Source: an uncultured Methylocystis sp.
GTDB taxonomy: Bacteria; Pseudomonadota; Alphaproteobacteria; Rhizobiales; Beijerinckiaceae
Assembly: GCA_964628955.1 (NCBI GenBank)
Contig: CAZVMY010000002.1
Span: forward strand, 1 to 35,196
Length of the DNA stretch: 35,196 bases
Reading direction: 5' to 3'
Each line of letters begins with the position of its first letter. Position 1 is the stretch's first letter. The notes under the pieces were generated by a model. That model had not been told where the DNA came from. It ran no database searches and saw only the letters and a program-made list of their open reading frames with translations. Shown piece by piece: positions 6,297-34,404 of the stretch. The position numbers and the translations under genes are program-made.

Positions 6297-7529
6297 TCAG
6301 AACATGGCCGCCACGGCCCGGATGCGTGTCGCGGCCGCGATGTGCGCCGCGCTCACGGGATGGACGCCGTCCGTCGTCTGGCCCGGCGCCCAGACTGACG
6401 GCGTCCCGGCATCGGCCCAAAGGCCGGCGTTGCAATCGATGACGCCGGCGACGTTGCCGGTGCTCACCTGCGTGTCGAGCCAGGTGTTGAACTGCTCGCG
6501 AATGCCGCCGGGCGCGAAGCCGGGGAGCGGTGTCTGATTGACGGCCGTCGCGAAGGCGTCGGTGGACGTCGTGCGCGGCGGGATGCGGACGTGCCAGCGC
6601 GGAATGCCGAGGCGGGCGAGCTGGCTCCAGATGCCCTGGGCATCGCCCTGCATCTGCGCGAGGGTTCGCCCGTTGTTGACGTCGTTCGTGCCGAGAGAAA
6701 TGATGCAGTGCGTGCAGGTCCACCAGTGGCCACGCTTGCGCGGCTGGATGTCCTGTGCCTGACCGCGCAGCTCGTCGGAGCCGCGAAAATGGCCGAGGCT
6801 CGGCAGTGCCGCACCGCGGATGCCGACGAGCGCGCGACGCGCCATGCCGCGGCTGCCGTCGCCGGCGGACACGTCACCTTGGCCATACGAAAAGCTGTCG
6901 CCGAGGATCAGCACGCTCGGCTGCCTGCGTCCGGCCTGACCGAAGACGCTGATGGGTCCGAAGCCGACCGGCTGCGCCGTACCGGTGATCGCGCCGGTGG
7001 CGGCCGCCTGCGTGGCGCCGCTGTCGGTCGTGGCCGCCTCGCCGGTAGCGTTCGACTGCATGCCGACCGGGATGAACTCGTTCGCGGCGACGAGCACCGA
7101 ACCACGGACCCACCATTCGCTGTTGGCGGGCAGGGTCGGATTGAACGGATCGGTCGTAGCCTCGCCGCCATCGGCGAGCGCCACCGTGCGCGAGCCACCG
7201 AACGTCAGCGGCACGGTGATCGGCACCACGGCGGCGTCGAAACGCGTCTGCGGCGTGGTGATCTCGATCGCCGCGTCGATCGTGAGGACGTTGCCGCTCC
7301 CGGCCTCCGTCCGGCCGGAGGTGATGTAGTAGTTGCCGAACACCAGCCGGACGTTGTTGAGCCCGCTCTCGGGCGCCGTCAGACGCCAGCGAAAGTGCAT
7401 TCGCGTGAAGCCGACCGCCTGCAGCAGGCCGTTCATCGAATGCGCGCGCGTGCCAACCTGCACATGATCATAGATCCTGTTGCGATCGCGAGCGCTCATA
7501 ACCAGACCGCCGCCGACCGTCAGGGTCAT
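6297..7529 (-). CDS. Tail-associated SGNH/GDSL hydrolase (esterase; candidate polysaccharide deacetylase) with an N-terminal beta-rich domain.
   Basis: SGNH blocks: VLILGDSFSYG (block I Ser), SLGTNDV (block III) and TDGVHPVSAAH (block V Asp-x-x-His). The start was taken at ATG 7529, which overlaps the upstream stop, rather than 7712. Confidence 0.85.
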   Translation of the reverse strand: MTLTVGGGLVMSARDRNRIYDHVQVGTRAHSMNGLLQAVGFTRMHFRWRLTAPESGLNNVRLVFGNYYITSGRTEAGSGNVLTIDAAIEITTPQTRFDAAVVPITVPLTFGGSRTVALADGGEATTDPFNPTLPANSEWWVRGSVLVAANEFIPVGMQSNATGEAATTDSGATQAAATGAITGTAQPVGFGPISVFGQAGRRQPSVLILGDSFSYGQGDVSAGDGSRGMARRALVGIRGAALPSLGHFRGSDELRGQAQDIQPRKRGHWWTCTHCIISLGTNDVNNGRTLAQMQGDAQGIWSQLARLGIPRWHVRIPPRTTSTDAFATAVNQTPLPGFAPGGIREQFNTWLDTQVSTGNVAGVIDCNAGLWADAGTPSVWAPGQTTDGVHPVSAAHIAAATRIRAVAAMF

Positions 7530-7786
7530 TTCGTCACCACGACGAAGGGATGCCCGGTCGTGGCGCTCCACGCGAGCAGCGACTGCCCCTCGGCCGGCCG
7601 GCGGCCCTGCGTCGCACCCGCCTCGATCGGGATACCGGTCGTCGCGGATGGAGGGTTGGCAGGATCGTCGGACACCATAAGCGTGGCGCCGCCGAGGTTG
7701 ATGATCGACCACTCGGAGAAGCCGCCGGCGGCGACCGCGACCTCTGCGGTGCCGCCGAGCGTGATGGTGCGGTTGACGATGCTCAT
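7526..7786 (-). CDS. Small beta-rich hypothetical protein (86 aa) between the tailspike and the SGNH esterase.
   Basis: Compact coupled ORF. No recognisable domain. Confidence 0.55.
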   Translation of the reverse strand: MSIVNRTITLGGTAEVAVAAGGFSEWSIINLGGATLMVSDDPANPPSATTGIPIEAGATQGRRPAEGQSLLAWSATTGHPFVVVTK

Positions 7787-7793
7787 GGGTGCC

Positions 7794-9896
7794 TCACGTC
7801 AGCAGGTTGTCGCCGGTGGAGCGGATCGGCGAGCCGCCGGTGTAGTCGTTCAGGACGGCCGTCAGGACGGTCATCTTGTTGTCGCGGACCATGTGACGGT
7901 TGCCGTTGCCGATGAGGATGCCGAAGTCGACGGTCCCGCACCGGGTGGCGTTGTTGCCGATCACCGACACGTGCTCGCAGCCGTCGATGTTGATGATCGC
8001 GGCCGTCCCGCTGACCTTGGTGATGCTGTCCGCTTCCAGCCCGGTGATCGTGAGAGCTTCGATACCGACGAAATAAAGCGCCGCGTTGCCGTCGGCCGGA
8101 TCGCACTGGATCAGGCCGAGGCCGCAGCCGTCGACGACGAACTGGCGGATCGACGCCGAGCCCGTCGACGTCGCGAAGATCGCCGGACCGGTGTAGTTGA
8201 CGAAGTACGGGCGCACGAAGTGGATCTGGAAGATCTGCGCCGTGTCGATCGCGGCGAAATCGACCGCGCGCTGGCCGGCCGGAGCGCCTGGTCCATCCCA
8301 TTGGGTGCCGAAAAACCAGATGTCGCCGATCTGCGACGATCCCGACGCCTCAAGGCGGGTGCCGGTCTTGTAGATCTTGGTGCCGTGAAAATGGAACCCG
8401 CGCGCCTGGCCGCTGCTCGCCGTGAGCACCCTCAGCGGTCGAACCGTCGCGTCGCCGGCAAACTCGCACGAATAGAAGACGAAGTCGCCGCAGAAGGAGT
8501 TCGCGGTGGTCGCCTGGAACAGCGCCGTGCCGGCACGGACGACCACGTTCCGGAAATCGATGTGCTTGGCCTCGTCAACCTGAAGGACGTTGCCTGCAGT
8601 GAAGCTCTCGAATTTCAGGTCGCGTACTTGCGAGAACGCGAAACTGGACGTGACGAGCCCGAAGGCACCGATCCGCAGCCCGGTCGCCGTCGTCGGCCCG
8701 AGAAAGCCGTCGAAATCGATACCGGAAATGTCCATGAGCGCGTCGCCGCGGCCGGTGTTGACGTCAGCCAGCAGGCAGCGCGGGACGATCGACAGGCCGC
8801 GGACGCCGGCGGCGACCCGAAACAGGCAGCCGTTGCCGCGCAGCCGCACCTGATAGGCCCGCGTATCGCTGGCCGACCGGCCGTGTTTCATGGTCAGCCC
8901 GGGCGCGCCGATGAGGTACCGGGCGCCCGGTTGCAGATCGACCCACAGATCGCGATCCTGCGCGAAGTCGATCGCCCGCTGGATCGCCGCAGTGGCGCTC
9001 ACGGCCTCGACCGTGTTCGGCTCGAACACCGACGCGTAGATCGTGTCCACCGGCCCCGGGCGCGGGTGCAGGTAGGTCTGCACGCCGGCGATGAAGCAGC
9101 GGCCGGGTCCCCACGTCTTGCCGAGCGTCGGCGGGACGGTGACGACGTAGGTGCCGGGCGGCACGTAGACCGAGGCGGAGGCCGCTTCCGCTGCCGCGAA
9201 GGCGGCGCTGTCGTCGGCGATGCCGTTGCCGACCGCGCCGAAGTCGAAGGGCGTGGTGACGAGCTGCTGTAACCGGGCGGGCAGCGGCTCGAGCGGCGCC
9301 AGCCGCGCATTGAGCTGCTGGAGCGGCACGGCCTGGAGCGGCGTCGTGGCATTCCCCGGCAGGAGCGGGAAGCCGGTGACCGGCAGCGCGACGCTTGGGT
9401 TGCCGTCCGCGTCGAACACGAAATAGGCGCCGGCGCGCGCGGCGACGGGCGGCAGGCGATCGGGCGGCGTCTCGCCGTCGGGCACGCGCAGCGTCGTCGT
9501 CTCGAGGTCCCGGATGTCGCGCCGCGCCTCCTGGAACAGGATCGTGTGGCGGTCGAACTCACGCTCGAGGAGCGCCGATCGCACCACCCCGGCGAGCGTC
9601 GCATCGAGAAGCCGCTCGTCGATGCGCTCGCCGCGCACGCGGATCGTCGTGCCGGCGACGGCGGGAACCGCGAGAGTGACGGTGGCGACGGCCGGCGCGG
9701 CGCCGCCCAGCGTCACGGTCGCGGCGACGACGACGAACTCGCTGCCGCCGGCTGGCCGGGCCAGCACGGCGACGTCCGCGGGCGCGTAGGCCCGCCAGTC
9801 GGTCGGGCCGAAGACGGTCTGGCCGCCGGCGGCCGTGTAGTCGTTCTGCCGCGTCTGGCGCGGGATGGGATAGGCGATCGACATGCGCGGCAGCAT
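7794..9896 (-). CDS. Tailspike or tail fibre with a right-handed beta-helix (pectate-lyase-type) depolymerase domain.
   Basis: FDFGAVGNGIADDSAAFAAAEAASASVYVPPGTYVV is the classic Pectate_lyase_3 / P22-tailspike-type N-cap motif. Periodic beta-helix-like repeats follow. It sits after the internal virion genes. The true start may be the ATG at 9884. Confidence 0.8.
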   Translation of the reverse strand: MLPRMSIAYPIPRQTRQNDYTAAGGQTVFGPTDWRAYAPADVAVLARPAGGSEFVVVAATVTLGGAAPAVATVTLAVPAVAGTTIRVRGERIDERLLDATLAGVVRSALLEREFDRHTILFQEARRDIRDLETTTLRVPDGETPPDRLPPVAARAGAYFVFDADGNPSVALPVTGFPLLPGNATTPLQAVPLQQLNARLAPLEPLPARLQQLVTTPFDFGAVGNGIADDSAAFAAAEAASASVYVPPGTYVVTVPPTLGKTWGPGRCFIAGVQTYLHPRPGPVDTIYASVFEPNTVEAVSATAAIQRAIDFAQDRDLWVDLQPGARYLIGAPGLTMKHGRSASDTRAYQVRLRGNGCLFRVAAGVRGLSIVPRCLLADVNTGRGDALMDISGIDFDGFLGPTTATGLRIGAFGLVTSSFAFSQVRDLKFESFTAGNVLQVDEAKHIDFRNVVVRAGTALFQATTANSFCGDFVFYSCEFAGDATVRPLRVLTASSGQARGFHFHGTKIYKTGTRLEASGSSQIGDIWFFGTQWDGPGAPAGQRAVDFAAIDTAQIFQIHFVRPYFVNYTGPAIFATSTGSASIRQFVVDGCGLGLIQCDPADGNAALYFVGIEALTITGLEADSITKVSGTAAIINIDGCEHVSVIGNNATRCGTVDFGILIGNGNRHMVRDNKMTVLTAVLNDYTGGSPIRSTGDNLLT

Positions 9897-9928: not shown

Positions 9929-12388
9929 TCACGGCGCCCGCTGCGGCACCAGCTCGCCCGGGCGCCACCAGAATTCCTGCCCGGTTTCGCGCGCGAGGCG
10001 CCGTTCGCGCGTGCGGAAGGTGCGGTGTGCGTCGGGGTCGGCCAGATAGTCGAGCTGGTCGATGAACGCGCGCTGCCAGGCCAGTCGCGTGTACCAGAGC
10101 GACGAGATCACCGGCGTGTAGCGGGCCAGCTTGGTGACGTCGCCGCTGTTGACGTCGTCGCCCTTCAGCGGGCGATAGACGTTGCCGAGCGTCGCCTTGG
10201 TGACGTCGGACACGAGACCGAATGTTGGCCCGGCCATGGAGGTGATCGCGTCCTGGCCGAAGCGCGACTGGTCGGCGAACAGGAAGTCGCCGAACAGGCC
10301 CAGACCGCCGCCCGCCTTGGCCGCGGCGACCCAGAAGCGGGGATCGTCCATCGGCTGCGGGTCCTTACCGTTCAGCAGCTGCTTGATCTGGGTCGAAACC
10401 GCGCCGCCGAGCGTCAGCCCTAGCAGCAGCGCCCCGGCGTAACGAGCGCCGCGGACCTTGCCGAAATCGGCCGTCTCGCGGGCGACAGCTTCCAGCTGGA
10501 GCGATCCCAGCGAGAGCACGAAACCCTTGAACTGCATGAAGCTCGACACCAGCTCGCCGGTCACGGTTCCGGGCCGCGACCCGGCGCGGGTGAGCGAGCG
10601 CAGACGCTTGGTGCCGCTCGGCACCGCCCGCTCGGTCTCGCCGAGGATCATCTCGAGATACCGCTCTGCGGCCGCGCGATCGGTCAGCGCCACGTCGGCC
10701 GGGCGTACGAACAATGCACCAGGTGTCGGTTCGTGCGGCGTGACGCCGCGCACGGTGTTCCAGACGCCGGCATCGAAGCCGTAACCTTCCATAGTCCGGC
10801 GCAGGCGGGCGTCGAGCTTTGACCACTCGCTGCCGGCGTTCTCGGCGACCCAGCCTTGCAGCTCACGGCCGAAGATGAACTTACGCGCTTGCGTCCACGG
10901 CGCGAGGCCCGACAGCGTCAGCGTCCGATCGGCCAGCCAGTTCGTGGCGTTGGTCCCTTGCAGCGTGCCGACGTAGCGCGCCTCCTGTCCGAGCACGTGC
11001 ATGGCGTCGTCGAGGATCAGGCCGGATCGGACCATGTCGCGGCGCGAGCCGCCGGCGAGCGTCCGGACGATCTCCTCGACGATCGTGCGCGTCGGCAGCC
11101 CCGACAGGCGTTTGGCTGCGTTCGCGATGAATGGATCGGTGGCGATCGCCGTGACGCTGGCCGAGCCGAGCAGCGCCGACGTCAGCAGCGACCGGACGTT
11201 GGCGAACCCAGCAGCCCAGAAGGCGTTGACCTGGCCGACGCTGCGGATTTCGTTCCACAGCGCATCGACCTGATAGTCGACGGCGCCGCCAGCCTGAAAG
11301 GCACGTTCGGCGGTGTTCGCCTGGTACAGCGACGGCTGGCCGGCGGTCGCCTTGCCCTGTTCGATGCGCACCACCTGTTTCAGCCACTCGACCATGGCGC
11401 CGGGGTTCGGCCCGAGGATCTCCATCGCGGCGACGTCGCGCGCCATGCCGCGGACGTGGTTCATCATCGCCGCGAAGGCGTCGCCCTGGCCGAAGCTCGA
11501 CGCGTAGTCCTGCCACGCCGCGGCATCCCTGAAGATCAGGAAGCGATGGTCCGACCGCTGGCCGGCCAGGGCACCGCGGCCCTGCGGCAGTGCCTGCGGC
11601 GCCCGGTCGCCCCAGCCGTCGGAGACGATACGATCATAGGCGACGTCGAGCGCCGATTGCAGGCGCGCCGCCGTGAGCGGATCGCCGGTGAGCGGGTCGC
11701 GCATCCGCGCGAGGTCGAGGCGCGGGGCGATGAACTTCTTCCACTGGCCGCGACCGGCCCGGACCATGGCGCGCGGATCGTGCAGCTGCGGCAGCGCCCA
11801 GCCGTCGAGGTGGCCGATCTGGCCGCCGGCGGCGTTGAAGCGGCCGCGCAAATCCTCCGCGACGTCGCGGAAGGTCGAGGCGAACCCCTTGGCCGCGAGG
11901 TTCTTCGTGTCCTCGCCGTGCAACTCGCGCACCACCTCGGCCAGCGTCGCCTTGTTGCGCCGGGCGCCGGTCGCGAGGCTCCGGTCGAAGGTGTCGAGCA
12001 GGTCGGCCATGCGCGCGTGGGCGAGGCCGACGATCGACTTCATGCGCCCCTCGACCGAGGAATAGCCGCTGAAACCGAAGTGTTCGAGCAGTCGCAGCGT
12101 TCCCGAGAGCACGTCGGGCCGGCCCCGGGCGTCACGGTAGCCGGTGACGTCGGCGAGTGCCCGGTCGCGAGCCTGCCTGGTCAGCCCGATCAACCGGCGA
12201 TCCTCGATCGCCTCCAGCTTGAGTTCCCTGGCCAGACGGTCGCGGGCCGCACCGGCCGCGGCAGCATCGCCCAGTTCGAGCGCGAGCTGACCGCGCAGCT
12301 CCTGGTGACGACGAAGCAGCGCCTCCGCCTCGACGCCGGTGATGGCGCCCTGGTTCACGGCTGACTGGAGGCATGATGAGAGGGTCAT
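9929..12388 (-). CDS. Large virion or ejection-type protein (819 aa), function unknown.
   Basis: Called from its position in the tail/internal-protein block and tight coupling to neighbours. It has hydrophobic Gly/Ala-rich segments near the C-terminus (ALLLGLTLGGAV, GGLGLFGDFLF). No catalytic motif recognised. Confidence 0.7.
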   Translation of the reverse strand: MTLSSCLQSAVNQGAITGVEAEALLRRHQELRGQLALELGDAAAAGAARDRLARELKLEAIEDRRLIGLTRQARDRALADVTGYRDARGRPDVLSGTLRLLEHFGFSGYSSVEGRMKSIVGLAHARMADLLDTFDRSLATGARRNKATLAEVVRELHGEDTKNLAAKGFASTFRDVAEDLRGRFNAAGGQIGHLDGWALPQLHDPRAMVRAGRGQWKKFIAPRLDLARMRDPLTGDPLTAARLQSALDVAYDRIVSDGWGDRAPQALPQGRGALAGQRSDHRFLIFRDAAAWQDYASSFGQGDAFAAMMNHVRGMARDVAAMEILGPNPGAMVEWLKQVVRIEQGKATAGQPSLYQANTAERAFQAGGAVDYQVDALWNEIRSVGQVNAFWAAGFANVRSLLTSALLGSASVTAIATDPFIANAAKRLSGLPTRTIVEEIVRTLAGGSRRDMVRSGLILDDAMHVLGQEARYVGTLQGTNATNWLADRTLTLSGLAPWTQARKFIFGRELQGWVAENAGSEWSKLDARLRRTMEGYGFDAGVWNTVRGVTPHEPTPGALFVRPADVALTDRAAAERYLEMILGETERAVPSGTKRLRSLTRAGSRPGTVTGELVSSFMQFKGFVLSLGSLQLEAVARETADFGKVRGARYAGALLLGLTLGGAVSTQIKQLLNGKDPQPMDDPRFWVAAAKAGGGLGLFGDFLFADQSRFGQDAITSMAGPTFGLVSDVTKATLGNVYRPLKGDDVNSGDVTKLARYTPVISSLWYTRLAWQRAFIDQLDYLADPDAHRTFRTRERRLARETGQEFWWRPGELVPQRAP

Positions 12389-12390
12389 GA

Positions 12391-15300
12391 TCAGTCCAGC
12401 TTACACGACGCGACGAGGTCTCCGAACAGCTCCTTTTTGTCGGCCTCCACAAGCGCTTCGGCGATCGGCACCGGCCGCATGTCCCGCCCCCCCTCCGTCG
12501 CCGCCTGGGGCAACGTATCGAAGAAGGAGGGCTCGACGGCCGGGTCGCGAAGCTGCAGCTCGGGTGTCAGCGCGTCGGCCTGCGCGGCGGCTGCCGGACT
12601 GCCGGGCTCGACCGGCGAGGCCGTTCGCAGAGACGGGCTGGCCGACAGCGCGTCGAGGCCGTCGCGCTGGATCAGGTCCAGCACGTCCTGCGTGAACCGG
12701 TCGGCCACGGCGTTCGTCCTGCCACCTTCCGCGAGAGCGACGGCCGCGCGGTTGAGCGCGTCCGAAACCGGTCCGGTTCGGGTCGCGAGCTTCTCGAGCA
12801 GGAAGCGCAGACGGTCCGCAGTGTCGCGTCGGCCCGCGTTGGCGACCGTGTCGAGCTGGTTCCCGGCAGCCTCGATCGCCGTCGCCCGGTCCGTGAGGAC
12901 GGAAAACAGACGCTTGTCCTGTTCGAGCCGCTTCATCGCAGCGGTGAAGATCCGCGCGCGTTCCGGTGCCAGCGACAGCGTCGTCTCCAGCTGGCCGAAC
13001 AACGTCTCCTGCACTTCGGTTCGAAATCCGGCCACGATCGCGTCGGAGATGGCGAACCGGGCCGCGGCCTCGCTGTCCGGTCGTACCCGCACGAGGCTTT
13101 CGACGATCGCGCCGTGCAGCTCCGGTTGGTTCGGCAGCTGGCGGCCGATCCATGCCGCGTGGTTTGCCTCGACGCGCTCGTTGATCACGGCCGACCATGC
13201 GACGTCCGACAGCCGTGCCAGCCCGACGGCCTGCTGGATGCGGCCGTCCGAGAGCGGGAGCGACGCGTCGAACAGATCGGGTCTGTCCCTGATGATCCGC
13301 GCGGTATCCAGCAGCGTGCCACTGCCCTCCTGGAGGTTCTTCTTGGCGGCGATCGCACGTACGTCCGCCGGTGTCCAGCCGTCCGCCTCGCGGAACACGT
13401 AGGCGTCGAGGCGGATGTCCTGGGCGGGGCTCTCCCTCAGCAGCCGTCTGGCGAGACCGAGCCGCTGGTGACCGTCGGCGATGACGCGGCTGCCGTCGGA
13501 GCGCTCGTAGACGACGGCTTTTCCGGCGGCTAGCGGGTCCCATGAACCGACCGACCGCAATCGATCAGTCACGCCAGCGGCGTCGCCAGCACTCTTGTAT
13601 TGAAATGTCAAGGCGTCTGTCGTAAGGCTTGTTGCGGGCACGCTCTCGAATGCGACTGGCCGATCGAGCACGCGGAACCGCACAGGCTCGCTGGACAGCG
13701 CCTCTCCGCCAGAAGGACGATCAATGACAGCCAATTGGGCCGTAGGTACCTGGGAAGGCGACCCGGTGCTGTTTTCGCCCAGCGCAGCTTTCGCGCTGAT
13801 AGATGGACGCTGGACGCTCGTCGACGAGGCGGACGTTCTGACGTCGGGCAAGGTGATGACGCCGGAGGCGTTCGAGGCGACGTTCCCTTCGTTGCCGATA
13901 TTTCCGCCGATGCCCCGCCAGGCGTCGGACAGACCCGAGCGTATTCGCGCATAGAGCGCCTGCATTTCCGCAAGCGCCCGGTCTCGCTCCGCGCCGGGCG
14001 ACAATGTACGAAACCGCTCGTAAAGCGCGTGGCCACCGCCTGTCTCCTTGGCCTTGTAAAGCGACGGCTCCCAGAATTGCACTTCACCGAGCTGGCCGTC
14101 GGGAAACCGGACGATCAGCTTGCGGTCTACGTAGCCCGCGAAGGTTTCGCTCCAGCCCTCGTCGATGATTTCAAACCGCTGGCGCAGGTCGGCCACGACG
14201 CGGTCGGCATCGGCGGGTGACCGCACGTTGAAGCCGCCGCGAACGATGTCGGTGATGTCGCTTGCATTGACGTAGCCTTTGACCGCCAGCTTCCGCGCTG
14301 CACTTTCCCGCGTCTTGATGCCGGGGTCGGTGAACGTCAGCCCGTAGCGAGCGCCGATTTCATCGGCTGCGGCCGCAAGTCGCGCCTGATTGGCAGGCGC
14401 CGCCTTAAACTGGCTGTCGATCGTCGTGAAGGGGACCTGCTGTTTGAACGCGGCGAGCTGACGCTTGACCTCGACCGGATCGGCCAGGACTGGCGGAGCA
14501 GCAGGCGCAGGCAACGGCGACACCGGGGAAGGGGCGTCGGGATCGATCGCGTGGCGCAGCGCGTCGTCGATCGTGTCCAGATGGTCGATTGCGGCCACTC
14601 CCGCGGGCGCCGGCGGCAGATCGGCGGCCTGGGCCTCCACTCTGGCTGCCGCATCGAGCTGCCGTCCGGCGTCGTCGTTGAGCGGCGCGCCGAGGGTGTC
14701 GATCACCTGACGCGCCTCGGCGGCCGTGCCGCGGCCCGACAGCACGCGGTCGACGGTGTCGGCCAGGGCCACCGCCTCCGGCCGGCGCAGCGCCGCCTGA
14801 AGGCCGCCGACCGCCCCGCCGAACACGCCGCCGATCAGCGCCGCCATGCCGACGTTCTCGATCGCCGGTTCGACCCCGTTGACGAGCCCCAGTTCGCGAC
14901 GCCAGGCCTGCACCACCGGCTGCTGCAGCGCGGTCACTCCGGCGTTGATCGCGGCCTCGCGCAGCGCCACCGACGTCACCTGGCCGACGACGCTCCTGGC
15001 GGCGGACGGGCCGGCGCCGAGCGCCAGGCTCGCCAGCGTGACGGGATCGGAGAGGGAGCCGAGCACGCTCGCCGCGCCCTCGACGGCGAAGCCCGCGGCA
15101 CCGCCCGGGCCGGTTGACCGGGCCTGCGTCAGCTCGGCTTCGGCGTTGCCGGCGATGGCACGGGCCTGTTCCTGCGGCGTCTGGTAGAACTGGAGCGCCT
15201 GCGCCCATTCCGGCTTCTGCGCCGCCAGCTCCGCGACCGCGGCGTCGAAGGCCCGGCGCTGGAGATCGGGCGACACCCGCGCGAAACTCTCGGCGTAAGT

Positions 15301-15696
15301 CGTGAAGTCGATCTCGCCGGCTTGCAGACGCTGGAGCCACATGGCGCGCGCCTCCCGCTCGAACCCGTTGTGCTCAGGGTTTTCCAGACTGACGCCGGTG
15401 ACCGACCGCACCACGTCCCGGCGCCGGTCGTAGGCGGCCGTCAGCGCCTCCGATCGGGCGTTCGTGTTGTCGACCAGCTGCTGGCTGCGCCGGGCGGCCT
15501 CGAACAGCCGGTCGCTGCGCCGGCGCGGCTCCTCGAGGAGCGCGGCCTGTTCGTCCCCGGTGAGCGCGAAACCGCGGCGGGCCGATCCGCCCGCGTCGGC
15601 CGCCACCTCGCGCAGCGTCTCGCCGAAGGTCAGGAACTCGTCGGGGCTGGCGACGGTGTCGAACGCGCGGTCGCGCGGCGCTTCCTCGAGGATCAC
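12391..15696 (-). CDS. Polyvalent internal-virion-type protein (1101 aa) carrying a RelA/SpoT-like nucleotidyltransferase domain (aa ~425-590) and a ParB/Srx-like domain (aa ~675-800).
   Basis: RSH-like motif series: GIKTRESAARKLAVKG, then ITDIVRGGFNV, then AGYVDRKLIV, then GEVQFWE, then GHALYERFR. These correspond to the RelQ motifs GRVK..S...K, DIAGLRI, GYRSYHLVV, EIQIRT and H..YKY. The ParB-like motif is KAVVYERSDGSRVIADGHQRLGLARRL. It occupies a gp16-like position after the gp14/gp15-like genes. Confidence 0.8.
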   Translation of the reverse strand: MILEEAPRDRAFDTVASPDEFLTFGETLREVAADAGGSARRGFALTGDEQAALLEEPRRRSDRLFEAARRSQQLVDNTNARSEALTAAYDRRRDVVRSVTGVSLENPEHNGFEREARAMWLQRLQAGEIDFTTYAESFARVSPDLQRRAFDAAVAELAAQKPEWAQALQFYQTPQEQARAIAGNAEAELTQARSTGPGGAAGFAVEGAASVLGSLSDPVTLASLALGAGPSAARSVVGQVTSVALREAAINAGVTALQQPVVQAWRRELGLVNGVEPAIENVGMAALIGGVFGGAVGGLQAALRRPEAVALADTVDRVLSGRGTAAEARQVIDTLGAPLNDDAGRQLDAAARVEAQAADLPPAPAGVAAIDHLDTIDDALRHAIDPDAPSPVSPLPAPAAPPVLADPVEVKRQLAAFKQQVPFTTIDSQFKAAPANQARLAAAADEIGARYGLTFTDPGIKTRESAARKLAVKGYVNASDITDIVRGGFNVRSPADADRVVADLRQRFEIIDEGWSETFAGYVDRKLIVRFPDGQLGEVQFWEPSLYKAKETGGGHALYERFRTLSPGAERDRALAEMQALYARIRSGLSDAWRGIGGNIGNEGNVASNASGVITLPDVRTSASSTSVQRPSISAKAALGENSTGSPSQVPTAQLAVIDRPSGGEALSSEPVRFRVLDRPVAFESVPATSLTTDALTFQYKSAGDAAGVTDRLRSVGSWDPLAAGKAVVYERSDGSRVIADGHQRLGLARRLLRESPAQDIRLDAYVFREADGWTPADVRAIAAKKNLQEGSGTLLDTARIIRDRPDLFDASLPLSDGRIQQAVGLARLSDVAWSAVINERVEANHAAWIGRQLPNQPELHGAIVESLVRVRPDSEAAARFAISDAIVAGFRTEVQETLFGQLETTLSLAPERARIFTAAMKRLEQDKRLFSVLTDRATAIEAAGNQLDTVANAGRRDTADRLRFLLEKLATRTGPVSDALNRAAVALAEGGRTNAVADRFTQDVLDLIQRDGLDALSASPSLRTASPVEPGSPAAAAQADALTPELQLRDPAVEPSFFDTLPQAATEGGRDMRPVPIAEALVEADKKELFGDLVASCKLD

Positions 15697-15697
15697 G

Positions 15698-17926
15698 TCA
15701 GTTCCCCAAAAACGCGCCCGGCACGCGGCCGCGCAGCGTCGGCAGCAGCGGGTCGAGGTCGAGGGTGAACGGCTGGCCGTCGGCGCGCGGGATGAACTTT
15801 GGCGGATCGCGCTCGGGGTTCGTACTCGAGAAGCGGTATCCGGTGCCGACGCGTACGGGGAAAGCGCGCGCCAGCGCCCGCGGGCCGAAGACGGTCCCGT
15901 CCGGTGCCTGCGGCCGGTTGGGACCCAGCGCGGCGAGATCGGCCTCGGTCAGGGCACCGATCACGTCCATGAAGCGATCGGCGCGCACCTCTTGGGGCAC
16001 GAGCACCTTGGCGCCCGACGAGAGCCAGCCGCCCTGGACGGTGCCGACCCCACCATATCGGGTCTTCTGTACCGTGGCCTGGCCGGCCGCCTGCTCGTAG
16101 GCGCGGCGCAGCTCCTCCTGCGCGTCGGCCGATCCGGGTTCGACGTTGAAGCGGCTGACCCTCGCCTGCCAGATCGCGGTGGCAGCGACGTCCAGTCGCG
16201 CCCGGCTCTCCGGCAGCTCGGCATAGGCCCGGCCCACCACCTCGGACCTGATCTTGTCGACGTCCTCGCGTCTGGGCTGCGGCAGCCTGGCGCCGGGGAT
16301 CGCCTTGATCCGGTAGCCCTCGAGCAGGTCGCGCGCGGTATCGCGCTGGCCCGGGGTGCCGGCGGCGACCAGCTGGCCGGCGACGGCCAGTTCGGGCGCG
16401 CCTTCGCCGAGCTCGGCGAGTATGGCCGGCGCGTCGCGGCCGGCGCCCCTGACGATGCCGCGGATCAATCCGAGGGCGCGATCGGGGTCCTTCTTCAGTT
16501 CGGTCCGGAGCCGGTTCACGTCGTCGGGCTGCAGGAACTGCGGCGGACGGTTGAGGCCCTGTCCGATGCTGCGGCCCAGCGCCGTGCGGGCGGCGATCTG
16601 CGCCTCGAAGCTGCGGTCGTCGGCCATGGGATCGATGGGCACCACCTGCACCAGCCCCTGTTTCTGGACGTGGCCCAGCTGGTCGGTGGCGATCGCCTTG
16701 CGCGTCTCGTCGCGCAGCTCCTCGAGATACCGGACCGTGTCGGCTTCGGCCTCGCTGCTGCCCCCGGTGCGCGCCTGGCGCTGGCGCACGAGATTGAGCG
16801 CGAGGTCGATGTCCTCGGGCGGCCGGCCGCGGAGCGAGCGCGTCACGCCGATGCGCCGCTCCGCCCGGTCGATCAGCGCCGCGCCGCCGGGCGCGCGCTC
16901 GGCGAGGATGCGCAGCTGCGCCAGCTCCTCGGCCGGGACCGTGAAGCCCTCGCGCTCGCGCTGGATCGCGCTGTCGATCGCCTTGCCCAGCCGGCCCGCG
17001 TCCGCCCCGGTGGCGATGGTCAGCTGTCGTCGGCGCCTGTCGTAGGCCGCGTCGATCTTGTCGATGGTGTCGGCCGTCAGTTCCTTGAGCCCACCGCTCT
17101 TCAGCCCCTCGCGGTACTGCGCCTCGTGAGCGTCGAGCTCGCTGAGACTGCCGATCCTGTCGAGCCGTGCCTCGACGATCCGCTGCTGCGTCTCGGTCCG
17201 GGCATCGTCGCGCAGCTTCTGACCGGTGACGGCCGTGATCGTGCCGCGCCGCACCAGGCGGTCGGTGCGGGCATCGATCGACGCCTGCTCCTGCCGCAGC
17301 GCCTCCTGGGCCTCGGGTGTGTCGGCGCCGCCGGAGGTCAGGCGCGCGATCGCGCCGCGGCTCGTATTGATCGCCTCGATCGCCGAGACACGCTCGGCGT
17401 CGAGGGTCCTGGCCTGCAGGTCGTCGGCCGCGGACTTCAGATGCGGCCGGGCGAGGGTCGCGAAGCGCGCCTCGGTCTGGCCGCGGATCTCCGGAAACGC
17501 GTCGTCGTCGAGGATCTTCGTCTTCGCGGCCTCGAACTGCCGCTGCAACGCCGACGGGTTGCGCTGGTCCGCCGGGAGTGCCGAGTAGTCCGTATAGAGC
17601 TGTGTGACCACGCTGCTGATCTTGGCGTCCAGCTTGTCGGCGTAGACCGTGGTCGCCGCCTTGTCGAAGGCTTGGGCACGCAGGGTGCCGGCTCCCGACG
17701 GCCGGAACGCCGGGTCGTTTCCTGCCACCTTGCCGGCGTTGGTCGCCTCGTTCTCGACGAACTGGTCGGCCAGACGGCCGAACTTCGACGATACTTCCTC
17801 GAGCGCGCGGGCCGTCTGGCGGTCGGCCTCGCCGCCGAGGTAATCGACCTGGACGTTGCCTTCGGGCAGCAGCGGCCGCGGCCTGAACTCCTCGACCTGA
17901 ATACCGGACGCGCGCCGATTGACCAT
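15698..17926 (-). CDS. Internal virion or ejection protein (742 aa, gp15-like position).
   Basis: Called by position and size. It is long, alpha-helical and charged. No catalytic motif recognised. Confidence 0.7.
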   Translation of the reverse strand: MVNRRASGIQVEEFRPRPLLPEGNVQVDYLGGEADRQTARALEEVSSKFGRLADQFVENEATNAGKVAGNDPAFRPSGAGTLRAQAFDKAATTVYADKLDAKISSVVTQLYTDYSALPADQRNPSALQRQFEAAKTKILDDDAFPEIRGQTEARFATLARPHLKSAADDLQARTLDAERVSAIEAINTSRGAIARLTSGGADTPEAQEALRQEQASIDARTDRLVRRGTITAVTGQKLRDDARTETQQRIVEARLDRIGSLSELDAHEAQYREGLKSGGLKELTADTIDKIDAAYDRRRRQLTIATGADAGRLGKAIDSAIQREREGFTVPAEELAQLRILAERAPGGAALIDRAERRIGVTRSLRGRPPEDIDLALNLVRQRQARTGGSSEAEADTVRYLEELRDETRKAIATDQLGHVQKQGLVQVVPIDPMADDRSFEAQIAARTALGRSIGQGLNRPPQFLQPDDVNRLRTELKKDPDRALGLIRGIVRGAGRDAPAILAELGEGAPELAVAGQLVAAGTPGQRDTARDLLEGYRIKAIPGARLPQPRREDVDKIRSEVVGRAYAELPESRARLDVAATAIWQARVSRFNVEPGSADAQEELRRAYEQAAGQATVQKTRYGGVGTVQGGWLSSGAKVLVPQEVRADRFMDVIGALTEADLAALGPNRPQAPDGTVFGPRALARAFPVRVGTGYRFSSTNPERDPPKFIPRADGQPFTLDLDPLLPTLRGRVPGAFLGN

Positions 17927-17928
17927 GG

Positions 17929-18546
17929 TCAGCCCCGCCGCAGGACGGAAGCGCCGGTTTCGAGGAGCTGCCCGGCCGCTCTGGCGAGCGAGCCGCGACG
18001 GGCCTCTCCGCCCTGCAACCTGAGCAGGTCCGCGCGCTGGCGCAACCGCGACACCCGGAAGTCCGTCGTGCCCTGGTCGATCCCCAGCGCACGCTCGCCG
18101 TCCTCGACGGCCGCGCGACGCGCCTCCCGGGCGGTGCCGAAGGACAGATCGAGGCCGGAGGCCGCGGTCGCGACGTCCCGCTCCGCCAGCGCCTCGAGGA
18201 GACCGCGGCGCAGCGTGTTCTGGCGTTCGTTGCCCTGGACGCGTTCGGCGAGGATGTCCTGGCCGACGTCGAGCGCCTTCTCGTTCAGCCCGGCCGCTTC
18301 GGCCTGACCCTGGCGGATCGACGCGAAGGCCGACGCCAGCCCCGCACCGCCCGAGACGACCGACGCCAGCGAGCCGGCGGAGAACAGACTGGACAGCGTG
18401 CCGCCGGCGGCCGATGCGGCCGGCAGGGTGCTGAAAGCGGTGGCCGCGAGGTTGAGCGGCGCGCCCACCGCGGCGGAACCGACGCCGAGCGCGCTGCCGA
18501 TGCTGGACGCGAGGGAGCCGAGGGCGGCGGAGGCGAATTCGACCAT
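17929..18546 (-). CDS. Internal virion protein (205 aa, gp14-like position) with a Gly/Ala/Ser-rich hydrophobic N-terminal half.
   Basis: It follows the tail tubular B gene, with a 1-nt overlap to the upstream stop. Called on composition and position only. Confidence 0.65.
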   Translation of the reverse strand: MVEFASAALGSLASSIGSALGVGSAAVGAPLNLAATAFSTLPAASAAGGTLSSLFSAGSLASVVSGGAGLASAFASIRQGQAEAAGLNEKALDVGQDILAERVQGNERQNTLRRGLLEALAERDVATAASGLDLSFGTAREARRAAVEDGERALGIDQGTTDFRVSRLRQRADLLRLQGGEARRGSLARAAGQLLETGASVLRRG

Positions 18547-23860: not shown

Positions 23861-24265
23861 TCAGGTGGTTTCGCGGACGGGCGGCGCCTCCTGCCGGCCC
23901 TCCGCGATCAGCTTCAGGATCGTGTGCACGATCGCGTTCTGGCCCTCGCGATGGCAGCCGATGCCGTAGGCCTGGTGCATCGGCAGGTTCACCAGGGCGA
24001 TGAAGGTCGGCCGCCGCAGGGTCAGGTCGCACAGGTGCTCGAGCACGACGCGGCCCTCCGGCGTGTCGAACACGCGCGCGAAGATCATCGCGCGGTCGCT
24101 GGCGTCGGCCTCGAGCTTCTCGGTCCACATCCGCCGTGTGGTGTCCGCCGCTCCCGGGACGACGTGCTCGGCGAAGAAGTCCCAGCCAGCACCGGCCGCA
24201 GCGGCCGTCAGCGCGTCGAGCGGCATCGCCGGGTTCGGTTTCGGGCTGAGGTCGCGATCGCTCAT
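23861..24265 (-). CDS. Hypothetical head-module protein (134 aa) between portal and scaffold.
   Basis: ATGA coupling to the portal stop. A gene in this position is reminiscent of the Bbp19-like genes of BPP-1-type phages, from memory only. Confidence 0.6.
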   Translation of the reverse strand: MSDRDLSPKPNPAMPLDALTAAAAGAGWDFFAEHVVPGAADTTRRMWTEKLEADASDRAMIFARVFDTPEGRVVLEHLCDLTLRRPTFIALVNLPMHQAYGIGCHREGQNAIVHTILKLIAEGRQEAPPVRETT

Positions 24266-26559: not shown

Positions 26560-26756
26560 CAGCGGCGCCGCAGCCAGGCGAAGGACCACGGGTCCTCGAT
26601 CGGTTCCATCTTGAAGCCGCAGCCGCCCGCAAGATCAGGCCTACGGTCCGCGTTCAGGCGCTCGACGACGCATCGGGTGCGCGTGCCACGCTCGATGCTC
26701 AGCCTCACGTACGCGTCGCGGCGGATCGGTCGGCCGCTCGGATGCTCGGTCATCAC
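26559..26756 (-). CDS. Small hypothetical protein (65 aa).
   Basis: ATGA overlap with the terL stop. No recognisable domain. Confidence 0.45.
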   Translation of the reverse strand: MMTEHPSGRPIRRDAYVRLSIERGTRTRCVVERLNADRRPDLAGGCGFKMEPIEDPWSFAWLRRR

Positions 26757-33958: not shown

Positions 33959-34404
33959 TGCACCGTCTCGCGGCCGGTCGGCGCGGCCTCTCCTGACATC
34001 CGTCGGTCACCCTCCCGGGCCTGCTGCCGGGCGGCGGTGATCCGCCCTCGCACCAGCACGCGGGCGGTGAGATACGGCCGACGCTCGAGCACCTCGCCCG
34101 GCGGCCGCCAGCTGCGGCGACCCGCGCGCTGCCGGGCGTCTTCGTCGCGGAAGCCGCTGGCGAGGCGTGCCAGACAACCCCAGAGGCGCAGCTTTGACGC
34201 CAGCGTGCGCTCGAACCGGCAGGCCATGAAGAGGTCGTAGAGTTCGGCACCCCGGCTCTTGCGCCGGTTGTTGAACGCGTGCCGGCAGGCGGCGCAGCAG
34301 AACCCGCCGGCGTCAGCCGACGCCGGGAGGACTGCGTCACACTCGGCGCACCACGCGTGTACACGGCGGCTCGGGGACGCAGCAGTGGCGACGATGCCGG
34401 TCAC
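33955..34404 (-). CDS. Zinc-ribbon-containing hypothetical protein (149 aa).
   Basis: CAECDAVLPASADAGGFCCAACRHAFNNRR provides four Cys. ATGA coupling on both sides. Confidence 0.55.
   Translation of the reverse strand: MTGIVATAASPSRRVHAWCAECDAVLPASADAGGFCCAACRHAFNNRRKSRGAELYDLFMACRFERTLASKLRLWGCLARLASGFRDEDARQRAGRRSWRPPGEVLERRPYLTARVLVRGRITAARQQAREGDRRMSGEAAPTGRETVQ

Follow-up and report, generated by a model that had tools for sequence, protein, structure and literature searches.

Tas1-like SYNTH domains are found on diverse delivery modules. They define the family of exported alarmone synthetases (EAS), in which the published carriers are a Sec signal peptide, LXG, XopAD, MuF, DUF4157 and Rhs/PAAR (PMC12691689). 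Enzymes of the Tas1 clade yield (p)ppApp, (p)ppGpp or both, and the EAS products vary between ppGpp only and both (PMC12691689). In temperate phages MuF-fused (p)ppApp synthetases (Apk2) have been described (Ahmad 2023, PMC10083569; Paulet 2025, PMC12226406; also Bartoli 2023), and whether phage-borne RSH toxins travel in virions and are injected was left open (PMC10083569). [quoted passage not shown] Ejection of the core proteins is known for T7, P22 and epsilon15; in the case of T7 gp16 the C-terminal portion is cytoplasmic and binds DNA (PMC8954989).

Here we consider a gene within a window of 35,196 nucleotides from an uncultured Methylocystis sp. (contig CAZVMY010000002.1). The original prediction placed a 1101-aa open reading frame at 12391..15696 in the gp16-like slot of a T7-type tail and internal-protein block. 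The reading frame exists, with the correction that it lies on the minus strand. The gene and its neighbours are as follows.

9929..12388, minus: 819-aa virion structural protein (PHROG 684), directly after the target gene
12391..15696, minus: target gene, putative internal-virion (ejection-slot) protein, 1101 aa; GTG start, GC3 0.84, synteny
15698..17926, minus: 742-aa protein in the epsilon15 gp15 slot, with no library match
17929..18546, minus: gp14-like internal virion protein (PHROG 418)

The genes are tightly packed, with 1 nt between the stop of the upstream gene and the start of the target gene and 2 nt between the target stop and the next start. The order tubular A/B, PHROG 418 internal virion protein, 742-aa protein, target and PHROG 684 protein is identical to that of phiV10/epsilon15 genes 11 to 17, and the 819-aa protein is a homologue of phiV10 gp20, the epsilon15 gp17-slot protein. 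The target thus follows the tubular tail proteins and the gp14/gp15-like genes and precedes the tail fibre, so that synteny agrees with the predicted slot, more exactly that of epsilon15 gp16. The same tail/core neighbourhood accompanies the RSH domain in most of the 88 loci carrying it that were retrieved. It is from its gene position that we infer the label of ejection protein. No homology of aa 1-399 to T7 gp16 or to any library family was detected using Pfam, PHROG and NCBIfam; there was no sequence homology to a lytic transglycosylase or T7 gp16 elsewhere, and the sole PHROG match (10691, function unknown) falls on the C-terminal part. The element is temperate, carrying an integrase and a CI/LexA-like repressor, and ARAGORN found no candidate tRNA for an attachment site. 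A plus-strand reading frame at 6591-9272 was rejected as a gene, as GC3 places the real genes there on the minus strand.

The protein is divided into the following modules, all on the minus strand and listed from the N-terminus.

14500..15696, minus: N-terminal anchor module, aa 1-399; no match in any library
14986..15075, minus: Gly/Ala-rich, moderately hydrophobic segment within the anchor, aa 208-237; Kyte-Doolittle maximum 1.33
14785..14865, minus: second hydrophobic, glycine-zipper-like segment, aa 278-304, NVGMAALIGGVFGGAVGGLQAAL; Kyte-Doolittle maximum 1.59
13936..14478, minus: Tas1-like RSH synthetase domain, aa 407-587, assigned by profile, AF2 and Foldseek
13660..13935, minus: Ser/Thr/Gly-rich tail, aa 588-679, which travels with the RSH domain
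13282..13659, minus: ParB/Srx-fold domain, aa 680-805, assigned by fold search and missed by Pfam
12562..13281, minus: conserved helical region, aa 806-1045, always after the ParB-like domain (PHROG 10691)
12394..12561, minus: C-terminal end, aa 1046-1101, from the alignment with the closest full-length relative

The anchor is common to the related proteins of ~1100 aa, whatever the order of their cargo. It is 40% identical over aa 60-383 to that of the closest full-length relative, P0085, in which the glycine-zipper-like segment is also kept; the segment at aa 208-237 may be a membrane-inserting helix.

The ordered set of RSH motifs quoted in the original prediction was found complete in the reading frame. 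The first, GIKTRESAARKLAVKG, lies at aa 459-474 (14275-14322), followed by ITDIVRGGFNV (aa 481-491), AGYVDRKLIV (aa 520-529), GEVQFWE (aa 537-543) and GHALYERFR (aa 555-563). With the target sequence by itself Tas1 was already the best match in the PDB, at a marginal E=0.015. A profile of aa 400-600 with 39 homologues (i.e. 40 sequences, the relatives being 32-49% identical to the target's domain) matched Tas1 (6OX6) with E=1.3e-19 and SaEAS with E=7e-7. The AF2 model of the domain has a pLDDT of 96 and a pTM of 0.90. In a Foldseek search with this model, proposed beforehand as a check, Tas1 came first (E=1.6e-8, TM 0.65-0.67), followed by the exported Streptomyces synthetase SaEAS and then Rel, RelQ, RelP, SpoT and RelA; the top ~40 PDB matches are all RSH synthetases. 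The structural alignment with Tas1 is only ~23% identical. At the level of the model this confirms the Pol-beta-like SYNTH fold of Rel, RelA, SpoT, RelQ, RelP and Tas1. The expected match to PF04607 (RelA_SpoT) did not appear at E<=10 for either the whole protein or aa 400-600, and that family matches only 2 of the 40 relatives (best E=0.001). The miss is a limit of the sensitivity of the Pfam model, and is outweighed by the evidence of fold and profile. Of the earlier label, toxSAS-like, the assignment as an RSH synthetase stands; the nearest relatives, however, are the clade of Tas1, Apk and the exported synthetases, and not the toxSAS of toxin-antitoxin systems.

The syn motifs are present in order, with basic residues binding the ATP phosphates, a Mg-binding Asp, the catalytic Glu-x-Gln and the H/Y motif. 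K461, K469, D483, R486, D524, E538, G555 and Y559 are invariant in the 40 sequences, and Q540 is at least 90% conserved. Of these, K461, K469, D483, R486, E538, Q540 and Y559 align with the Tas1 motifs KSRERAMQK, KDLAR, GEIQ and GHKYYE, so that the Glu, the Gln and the basic residues line up as had been anticipated, and from the sequence the domain is predicted to be catalytically intact. The acceptor site is different. Guanosine-specific enzymes have SxH and IR, while GxN is combined with YH or VN in the adenosine-specific Apk enzymes. The family signature here, GYxDRK / EVQFW, is unlike both patterns. The Apk syn2/3/4 signature RYT; GxN; YH (PMC12226406) is absent and is replaced by RGG, DRK and FW (in TDIVRGGF, GYVDRK and EVQFW); Tas1 has RNT, GVN and VN at the same positions. 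Since the signature fits neither the G type nor the A type, the sequence gives no call on the product.

The original prediction also had a ParB/Srx-like domain, at aa 725-750. The fold and the DGHQR motif were found, with the domain extending over ~aa 680-805 and no match to PF02195. The motif sequence VIADGHQRLGLARRL is at aa 738-752 (13441-13485). Within DGHQR (aa 741-745) the G, H and R are invariant and the D and Q at least 90% conserved in 23 sequences, and the FQxK motif of the domain is invariant; the conserved Gly-x-x-Arg active-site/NTP-binding motif of the ParB/sulfiredoxin superfamily is thus present. The AF2 model of aa 680-1045 has a pLDDT of 87. In Foldseek it matched Noc (E=3.2e-5, TM 0.56 on the target) and KorB (E ~4e-4), and then pNOB8 ParB-N (0.05) and sulfiredoxin (0.07-0.2). 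Within the helical region (aa 806-1045) a part lines up with the half of Noc and KorB that binds DNA. Neither ParBc (PF02195) nor another ParB-type Pfam model matched the target or 22 homologous segments at E<=0.1. A profile of the region found no match among PDB sequences and fold search alone succeeded; the ParB/Srx identity is therefore confirmed at the level of the modelled fold only.

Between the two cargo domains, the Ser/Gly linker predicted after the RSH region proved to be the Ser/Thr/Gly-rich tail at aa 588-679, a module that moves together with the RSH domain. The TAGRPSQ motif conserved in the family is present here in degenerate form, as STGSPSQ (aa 643-649, 13750-13770). In P0085 the RSH domain with its tail and the ParB module are in swapped order relative to the target, while the N-terminal anchor and the last ~23 residues hold their position. 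The target's final ~23 residues (aa 1078-1100, IAEALVEADKKELFGDLVASCKL) align with the last 23 of P0085, with a common core GDLVA[SA]CK[LV]. The drop in GC content noted earlier within the gene is real by both GC and GC3: positions 13450-14500 have a GC of 0.62-0.65 and the flanks 0.69-0.76. For GC3 the RSH domain has 0.77 and the linker 0.73, compared with 0.90-0.91 over the first 400 aa and a gene median of 0.88. Because of the GC3 dip over the RSH domain and tail together with the module swap relative to P0085, the sequences support cassette shuffling, and the earlier suggestion of an acquired cassette fits with this.

An exhaustive homologue search placed the RSH domain family at 812 clusters at 50% identity, 494 of them at E<=1e-10. 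The domain was present in at least 126 viral contigs, where it usually occupies the epsilon15 gp16 slot, and it occurs in alphaproteobacterial prophages, including those of the culturable Methylobacterium, Rhodoblastus and Ancylobacter. A word-indexed search returned few homologues, 3 for the whole protein and 13 for the profile. Stand-alone versions of ~280-300 aa are also found in phages, and larger relatives of 2300-3000 aa carry LPD38 and ART-PolyVal domains. Against 50,697 deposited phage records, tblastn with the RSH domain gave nothing better than E=0.07 and megablast with 20 kb of the window gave no match. Neither of the two domains of the target was matched by Pfam (whole protein and three pieces, E<=10), NCBIfam or PADLOC, and because these libraries miss the RSH family it is currently under-annotated. 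In UniProt, proteins of ~1100 aa from uncultured phages with the same fold are auto-named 'RelA/SpoT' or 'DdrB-like domain-containing', as the original prediction had foreseen. Its estimate of novelty was too high, given the 2017 polyvalent-protein paper and the MuF papers of 2023-2025. Our search of the literature for RelA/SpoT or alarmone in internal virion or ejection proteins gave only papers on MuF toxins, in which 'ejection protein' occurs in passing. Taking PMC5512222 and the MuF-(p)ppApp synthetase papers together, the target is a variant of an idea already described: an injected phage RSH has already been proposed in print, and the podovirus core-protein carrier itself is undescribed.

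Tas1 and Apk2 are toxins with dedicated immunity genes, and a corresponding gene was sought here. No immunity or antitoxin gene was found using Pfam on the other called reading frames and PDB phmmer on the small ones, and the gene junction provided no candidate in the 88 loci inspected. In ~50 related loci the downstream structural gene begins -3 to +5 nt from the stop. Pfam detected no HD/SAH domain within the window, and no small reading frame had a PDB-detectable Tis1 or hydrolase homologue, a search that a very divergent Tis1-like protein could escape. PADLOC gave no defence match for the target. A toxSAS toxin-antitoxin pair was rejected, these searches having found no antitoxin and the domain lying inside a 1101-aa protein of a structural operon, and a CapRel-type defence system was rejected by genomic context and by the ranking of the matches.

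The immunity search bears directly on the strongest alternative, that the domain is not injected and acts in the cell that expresses it, as a prophage toxin, as a module of abortive infection or superinfection exclusion like PhRel of mycobacteriophage, or as a polymorphic toxin, the role suggested for MuF-Apk2. The toxin character of Apk2 and Tas1, the temperate nature of the element and the stand-alone versions in phages all speak for it. We nevertheless consider it unlikely, as no candidate for immunity or antitoxin came up, the stop is followed after 2 nt by a structural gene, neither an HD hydrolase (Pfam) nor a Tis1-like or hydrolase-like reading frame (PDB search) was found, and the domain is fused in frame inside a conserved late structural operon rather than being a moron with its own promoter. 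Somewhat less probable again is that the RSH domain acts as a pyrophosphokinase on the 3'-CCA of tRNA, in the manner of CapRel, FaRel2 and PhRel2; once injected it would block host translation instead of making alarmones. The superfamily fold is the same and CapRel appears at Foldseek ranks 38-42; moreover, the DRK and FW motifs fall outside both the G-type and the A-type signatures, which leaves room for an unusual acceptor. Yet CapRel is a much poorer Foldseek match than Tas1, SaEAS, Rel and RelQ (E ~4e-3 compared with 1.6e-8), the profile found no CapRel chain at E<=10, PADLOC gave no match, and the closest characterised proteins, Tas1 and SaEAS, pyrophosphorylate nucleotides.

Two further explanations would deny the domain an enzymatic role. 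It might be catalytically inactive and serve the core protein as structure or scaffold, given that activity is predicted from sequence and that Pfam misses the domain. We think this very improbable, as the Mg/ATP-binding and catalytic residues are invariant in relatives of 32-49% overall identity, and the fold is predicted with a pLDDT of 96 in a large conserved family (494 clusters at E<=1e-10). A chance or low-complexity resemblance, which could have been argued from the marginal match of the lone sequence, is refuted by the profile (E=1.3e-19), the AF2 model and the fold search, structure prediction and fold search reaching the same family independently; its probability is negligible.

We therefore favour the interpretation that the target is a modular core (ejection) protein of a temperate podovirus of the epsilon15/T7 type that injects RSH and ParB cargo, with a probability of roughly 0.55. 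The analysis shows the folds, the invariant catalytic residues, the position of the gene, its conservation and its modularity. That the protein is packaged, reaches the cytoplasm by ejection and is active, as well as what it makes and how this affects the host, we infer, and these steps might be connected as follows. The N-terminal anchor, with its two hydrophobic glycine-rich helices, would build the protein into the core stack. Behind it would lie the cargo, i.e. the Tas1-like RSH domain with its Ser/Thr-rich tail, and the ParB/Srx-fold NTP-binding domain with the DNA-binding-like helical region. At infection the protein would leave through the tail along with the other core proteins, and its C-terminal modules, like the corresponding part of T7 gp16, would arrive in the cytoplasm. 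For this the RSH enzyme would have to unfold for the tail channel and refold afterwards. The RSH domain would then move pyrophosphate from ATP onto the 3'-OH of a purine nucleotide, giving (p)ppApp and/or (p)ppGpp. A few molecules of a very fast enzyme might drain ATP or raise alarmone quickly, stalling host growth and ATP-dependent defences ahead of any phage gene expression, while the ParB-like module might bind the incoming DNA or NTP. An immunity protein would be unneeded because the target is a late gene, silent in lysogens.

The kcat of SaEAS is ~1e5 per minute (PMC12691689), and P22 injects 12-30 copies of each ejection protein (PMC8402733). From these values virion-borne copies could turn over the ATP pool of the cell within minutes. 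The phage seems to rely on the host RNA polymerase. Massive depletion of ATP would harm the phage too, so the activity would necessarily be transient or moderate. A more far-reaching proposal is that the target is the first recognized member of a very large, unstudied family of podovirus ejection proteins that inject a Tas1-like pyrophosphokinase into the host cytoplasm as the DNA enters, with no immunity partner, that the GYxDRK/EVQFW site gives a product spectrum or regulation of an alarmone burst unlike those of Apk1 and Apk2, and that the ParB-fold NTP-binding module acts like a clamp on the entering genome; this we regard as tentative, and doubtful in its entirety.

If the interpretation is correct, alarmone biology would be tied to the earliest seconds of phage infection. 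Under the more far-reaching proposal, environmental podoviruses would commonly open host takeover or anti-defence with injected alarmone synthesis, and such synthesis would not be solely an interbacterial toxin activity. The missing immunity gene and the distinct acceptor-site signature should be notable for biochemistry. MuF proteins are a weak system for the question of injection, whereas core proteins of the T7, P22 and epsilon15 type are known to be ejected; a Tas1-like enzyme within such a protein would allow the injection of an alarmone synthetase to be tested more cleanly and directly.

Among known systems, Apk2 is also a Tas1-like RSH domain of temperate phages fused to a protein expected inside the capsid, and the same hypothesis of co-injection has been made for it. 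Its carrier is a MuF/SPP1 gp7 head protein, whereas the target is a podoviral core protein with no MuF match. The RSH domain of Apk2 is C-terminal, while that of the target is internal and co-fused with a ParB-like module. Apk2 has Tis1-like/Aph1 immunity and GxN/YH, in contrast to the DRK/FW of the target and its lack of an immunity gene. Tas1 (Apk1; 6OX6) of the Pseudomonas aeruginosa T6SS is the best profile and structural match and is likewise an enzyme delivered into another cell; it differs in PAAR/T6SS delivery, in its immunity protein Tis1 and in the acceptor-site residues. Neither the N-terminal PAAR domain of Apk1 nor the MuF domain of Apk2 is found in aa 1-399 of the target.

The resemblance to polyvalent proteins lies in the multidomain organization, the late/structural context and the predicted packaging and injection, and the RSH and ParB-fold modules are in a single reading frame between core and tail genes. 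A lineage of T7/epsilon15-type core proteins is not part of PMC5512222, and the target's ParB-like domain is outside the Pfam models including ParBc. With T7/epsilon15 gp16 the target shares operon position and a large modular mosaic architecture. T7 gp16, however, has a transglycosylase and a cytoplasmic DNA-binding C-terminal part, while the cargo here would be a pyrophosphokinase and a ParB-like module with no detectable homology to it. T4 Alt, a packaged ADP-ribosyltransferase, and the N4 virion RNA polymerase are capsid enzymes that act before phage gene expression, as is proposed here, with other chemistry and other targets; packaging of the target is predicted. SaEAS (PDB 8VX3; mBio 2025, PMC12691689) is the second-best match. 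A podovirus ejection protein is not among the published EAS carriers, and would add a seventh delivery route to those described for Tas1-like synthetases.

GC3 analysis identifies the 1101-aa ORF at 12391-15696 as a genuine gene (GC3 0.84), as originally predicted, with its orientation corrected to the minus strand, where it is read from a GTG start. It begins 1 nt past the stop of the upstream 742-aa gene and ends 2 nt before the 819-aa gene downstream begins. At ~70% GC a mechanical ORF list includes many long but spurious opposite-strand ORFs, and the 893-aa ORF at 6591-9272 (+) was ruled out as a gene by GC3, the real genes there lying on the minus strand.

The window represents a temperate podovirus with an epsilon15/T7-type structural plan and the following features.

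Features of the phage element
(+), CI/LexA-like repressor: HTH_3 plus a weak, sub-threshold Peptidase_S24 match
(+), tyrosine integrase
(-), primase/helicase genes, first in minus-strand order
26753-28261 (-), Walker-A terminase-like protein, 502 aa, GPGGSGKS motif, upstream of the portal
(-), portal, after the terminase-like protein
23861-24265 (-), Bbp19-like protein (Pfam family named for a Bordetella phage protein), between portal and putative scaffold
(-), putative scaffold, by position only
(-), capsid, Phage_capsid_2
(-), tail tubular A, then B, after the capsid
(-), PHROG 418 internal virion protein, after tail tubular A/B
(-), 742-aa protein, between the PHROG 418 protein and the 1101-aa protein
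12391-15696 (-), the 1101-aa protein
(-), PHROG 684 virion structural protein, 819 aa, directly after the 1101-aa protein
6297-7712 and 7794-9896 (both -), pectate-lyase-like tailspike and GDSL/SGNH esterase-like protein, after the PHROG 684 protein
(-), endolysin-like protein, then lipoprotein, past the tailspike and esterase
34401-34973 (-), DUF6745 protein (E=1e-49), at the early-gene end of the element

The 502-aa Walker-A protein is presumably the large terminase; it has no match in Pfam at E<=0.01 or in PHROG at E<=0.001. The tailspike and esterase together point to an ability to depolymerise and deacetylate a surface polysaccharide receptor. The gene order is the same as that of Escherichia phage phiV10 (Uetakevirus, epsilon15-like), which runs tail, tail, two internal virion proteins, gp15, gp16, gp17, tail fibre, endolysin, Rz, integrase. 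The phiV10 counterpart of the PHROG 684 protein is gp20, at the position of epsilon15 gp17; this correspondence and the shared gene order place the 1101-aa protein in the epsilon15 gp16 slot, so that the proposed gp16-like position in a T7-type block is borne out. The core proteins of T7, P22 and epsilon15 are ejected into the host, and the C-terminal part of T7 gp16 reaches the cytoplasm and binds DNA (PMC8954989).

Every motif quoted in the original prediction is found, within aa 459-563 or aa 738-752. The first set lies in a RelA/SpoT-homologue (RSH) synthetase domain that has no match in Pfam, NCBIfam or PADLOC, and for which the best PDB match of the single sequence is Tas1 (6OX6, E=0.015). 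Exhaustive HMMER searching with aa 400-600 gathered 812 representative clusters at E<=1e-3 (122 at E<=1e-30), whose parent proteins span 118-3023 aa with a median of 1044 aa. A profile made from a 40-sequence alignment of the domain matched Tas1 in the PDB with E=1.3e-19, in two stretches over profile positions 21-190, and the Streptomyces exported alarmone synthetase SaEAS (8VX3) with E=7e-7; RelQ/RelP-type enzymes matched weakly. An AlphaFold2 model from the same alignment (pLDDT 96, pTM 0.90) converges on this result. In Foldseek against the PDB, Tas1 (E=1.6e-8, TM 0.65-0.67) and SaEAS rank first, followed by ~40 Rel/RelQ/RelP/SpoT/RelA/CapRel chains ahead of any other fold. Thus the RSH-like domain is real, and the fold expected of it is found by model and structure search, though not by Pfam.

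Eight residues (K461, K469, D483, R486, D524, E538, G555 and Y559) are invariant in the 40-sequence alignment, and conservation reaches at least 90% at Q540, R525, K526 and W542. In an HMM alignment these map to the KSRERAMQK, KDLAR, GEIQ and GHKYYE motifs of Tas1. From RelSeq and RelQ, these motifs are taken to provide ATP-phosphate binding, the Asp that binds Mg and the catalytic Glu-x-Gln. The invariant residues fall on the Tas1 catalytic motifs, so the domain is very probably an active pyrophosphokinase.

The product is less easily read. Guanosine-specific RSH enzymes carry AVR, SxH and IR at syn2, syn3 and syn4, and the adenosine-specific Apk2 enzymes (MuF-fused (p)ppApp synthetases of temperate phages) carry RYT, GxN and YH (PMC12226406); Tas1 has RNT, GVN and VN by profile alignment. 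In the present family these positions are RGG, D-R-K and F-W, nearly invariant among the 40 sequences. Exchange of syn motifs left nucleotide specificity unconverted (PMC12226406). Within the Tas1 clade, (p)ppApp is the sole product of Tas1 and Apk2 and (p)ppGpp that of VpEAS and AaEAS, while SaEAS makes both with a preference for guanylates (PMC12691689). Since the signature is unlike the others, motif swaps do not convert specificity and products vary within the clade, the product cannot be read from sequence. We therefore commit only to a predicted 3'-pyrophosphorylation of purine nucleotides from ATP, leaning toward (p)ppApp and/or (p)ppGpp as the probable product; pyrophosphorylation of tRNA by the same domain would be a minor alternative to these alarmones.

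The second domain, predicted to be ParB/Srx-like, belongs to a single conserved unit, aa 680-1045, which has matches in PHROG 10691 (function unknown), in a 3912-aa protein from Ruegeria phage 45A6 and in the 792-aa protein that 'Dunaliella viridis virus SI2' carries at the syntenic position. No ParBc or other ParB-type Pfam model matches the protein or 22 homologous segments, and a profile of the region matches no PDB sequence. The AlphaFold2 model (pLDDT 87) does match, by fold, Noc (E=3.2e-5 over 224 aligned columns), KorB (~4e-4), the pNOB8 ParB N-domain and sulfiredoxin. Three residues of the DGHQR motif (G, H and R) are invariant, with D and Q at least 90% conserved. Membership of the ParB/Srx superfamily is thus supported at the level of predicted fold and motif, and the prediction holds in these terms, while the Pfam check of it (PF02195) was negative. 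Noc, KorB and ParB are CTP-dependent DNA clamps; considered with the DNA binding of the C-terminal part of T7 gp16, this leads us to speculate that the module might provide an NTP-gated grip on the entering genome. The Pfam and PDB-profile searches do not establish a place in the DdrB-like clade of Iyer et al. We note that the 792-aa slot protein of 'Dunaliella viridis virus SI2' (L002, 7993-10371) has the ParB-like module without RSH. Although deposited as an algal virus, that contig shares synteny with the window across a structural module of bacterial podovirus type, and its listed host is probably wrong.

BLASTP comparison with the closest full-length relative, P0085 (1222 aa), reveals a clean module swap. 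The N-terminal anchor (aa 60-383) and the final ~23 residues stay in place, and RSH plus tail (aa 381-655) is exchanged with ParB plus helical region (aa 679-1064). Identity is 55% for the ParB module and 40% for both the anchor and RSH plus tail. The terminal residues (aa 1078-1100, 12397-12465), IAEALVEADKKELFGDLVASCKL, align with the last 23 residues of P0085, LLEAIRAAERTDGLGDLVAACKV, and may act as a tag of position, used in assembly or in contact with the next core protein. GC3 is 0.90-0.91 in the N-terminal 400 aa, 0.77 in the RSH domain, 0.73 in the tail (minimum 0.60 at aa 651-700) and 0.81-0.85 in the ParB module. Together the swap and this dip support the proposal of a domain cassette, while giving no date for the event. 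The Ser/Thr/Gly-rich tail (~70-90 aa, 13660-13935) follows the RSH domain family-wide (P0004-P0056) and travels with it when modules shuffle. Its pattern is G.GG..PN...S..P.S.TS..ST..Q..PG....TAGRPSQ..N, with STGSPSQ in place of TAGRPSQ in the window (13750-13770). The tail might serve as a site of cleavage, as a leader for threading or as an autoinhibitor.

A scan found the RSH domain in at least 126 IMG/VR contigs. Among the 88 fetched loci with the domain, the ORF is usually 1040-1240 aa, with a ParB-like module upstream and RSH near the C-terminus; tubular B lies upstream, and a PHROG 684 homologue usually begins at -3 to +5 nt relative to the stop. The order in the window, RSH before ParB, recurs in just three of these (L015, L027, L075). 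Eight bacterial genome records have the domain, among them those of Ancylobacter crimeensis 6x-1, Rhodoblastus acidophilus DSM 137 and Methylobacterium jeotgali LMG 23639, all three with related prophages, and records assigned below phylum level are all Alphaproteobacteria except one gammaproteobacterial MAG. The domain is absent from 50,697 deposited phage genomes, no tblastn match being better than E=0.07. Uncultured-Caudovirales proteins of 981-1129 aa with the same RSH fold are present in BFVD, automatically named 'RelA/SpoT', 'DdrB-like domain-containing' or 'ART-PolyVal-like', together with a 204-aa 'Tas1' entry. Larger relatives contain LPD38 and ART-PolyVal domains, which puts the family in the 'polyvalent protein' class.

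In the R. acidophilus DSM 137 prophage (L085 / L023), whose host can be cultured, the slot is arranged differently again: a 982-aa RSH ORF lacks the ParB-like module, and ~2 kb of other coding sequence lies between it and the PHROG 684 homologue. Stand-alone RSH domains of 279-300 aa occur in phage contigs L092 (2788-3627), L034, L036 and L037, one of them immediately following the gene for a large terminase. The L092 copy is followed by small convergent ORFs of unknown function, which are possible candidates for immunity genes.

The genes for Tas1 and Apk2 are accompanied by immunity genes of the Tis1-like and/or Aph1 hydrolase type (Apk2: PMC10083569). Here there is no room for one at either junction of the gene, a Pfam search finds no HD hydrolase anywhere in the window, and in a PDB search its small ORFs resemble no solved structure. 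On the simplest reading, a late gene of a temperate phage would be silent in lysogens, and immunity would not be needed. This reading argues for an injected effector and against a resident toxin. Few molecules might suffice. SaEAS turns over ~1e5 per minute (PMC12691689); the T7 core has four gp16 (PMC8954989), and P22 injects each of its ejection proteins in 12-30 copies (PMC8402733). By analogy, ten copies at the SaEAS rate would consume of the order of 1e6 ATP per minute, by our own estimate comparable to the ATP pool of a bacterial cell. Such a burst would also harm the phage, so some limitation is expected, perhaps by the tail, membrane tethering or instability.

The prediction of an injected RSH effector is correct as to fold and slot, but its novelty is reduced because the concept is already published. 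Iyer et al. 2017 listed RelA/SpoT and ParB-superfamily domains among the cargo of phage-type polyvalent proteins, and proposed injection and an alarmone-like shutdown (PMC5512222). A literature search for RSH domains with internal virion or ejection proteins found no paper linking the two. MuF-fused (p)ppApp synthetases have been described (Jamet 2017; Ahmad 2023, PMC10083569; Bartoli 2023; Paulet 2025, PMC12226406), and a 2025 census of exported alarmone synthetases recognised six delivery modules for Tas1-like domains, none of them a podoviral core protein (PMC12691689). What is new here is the carrier, the absence of immunity, the distinct acceptor signature and a large unannotated family, with functions predicted from sequence and structural models.
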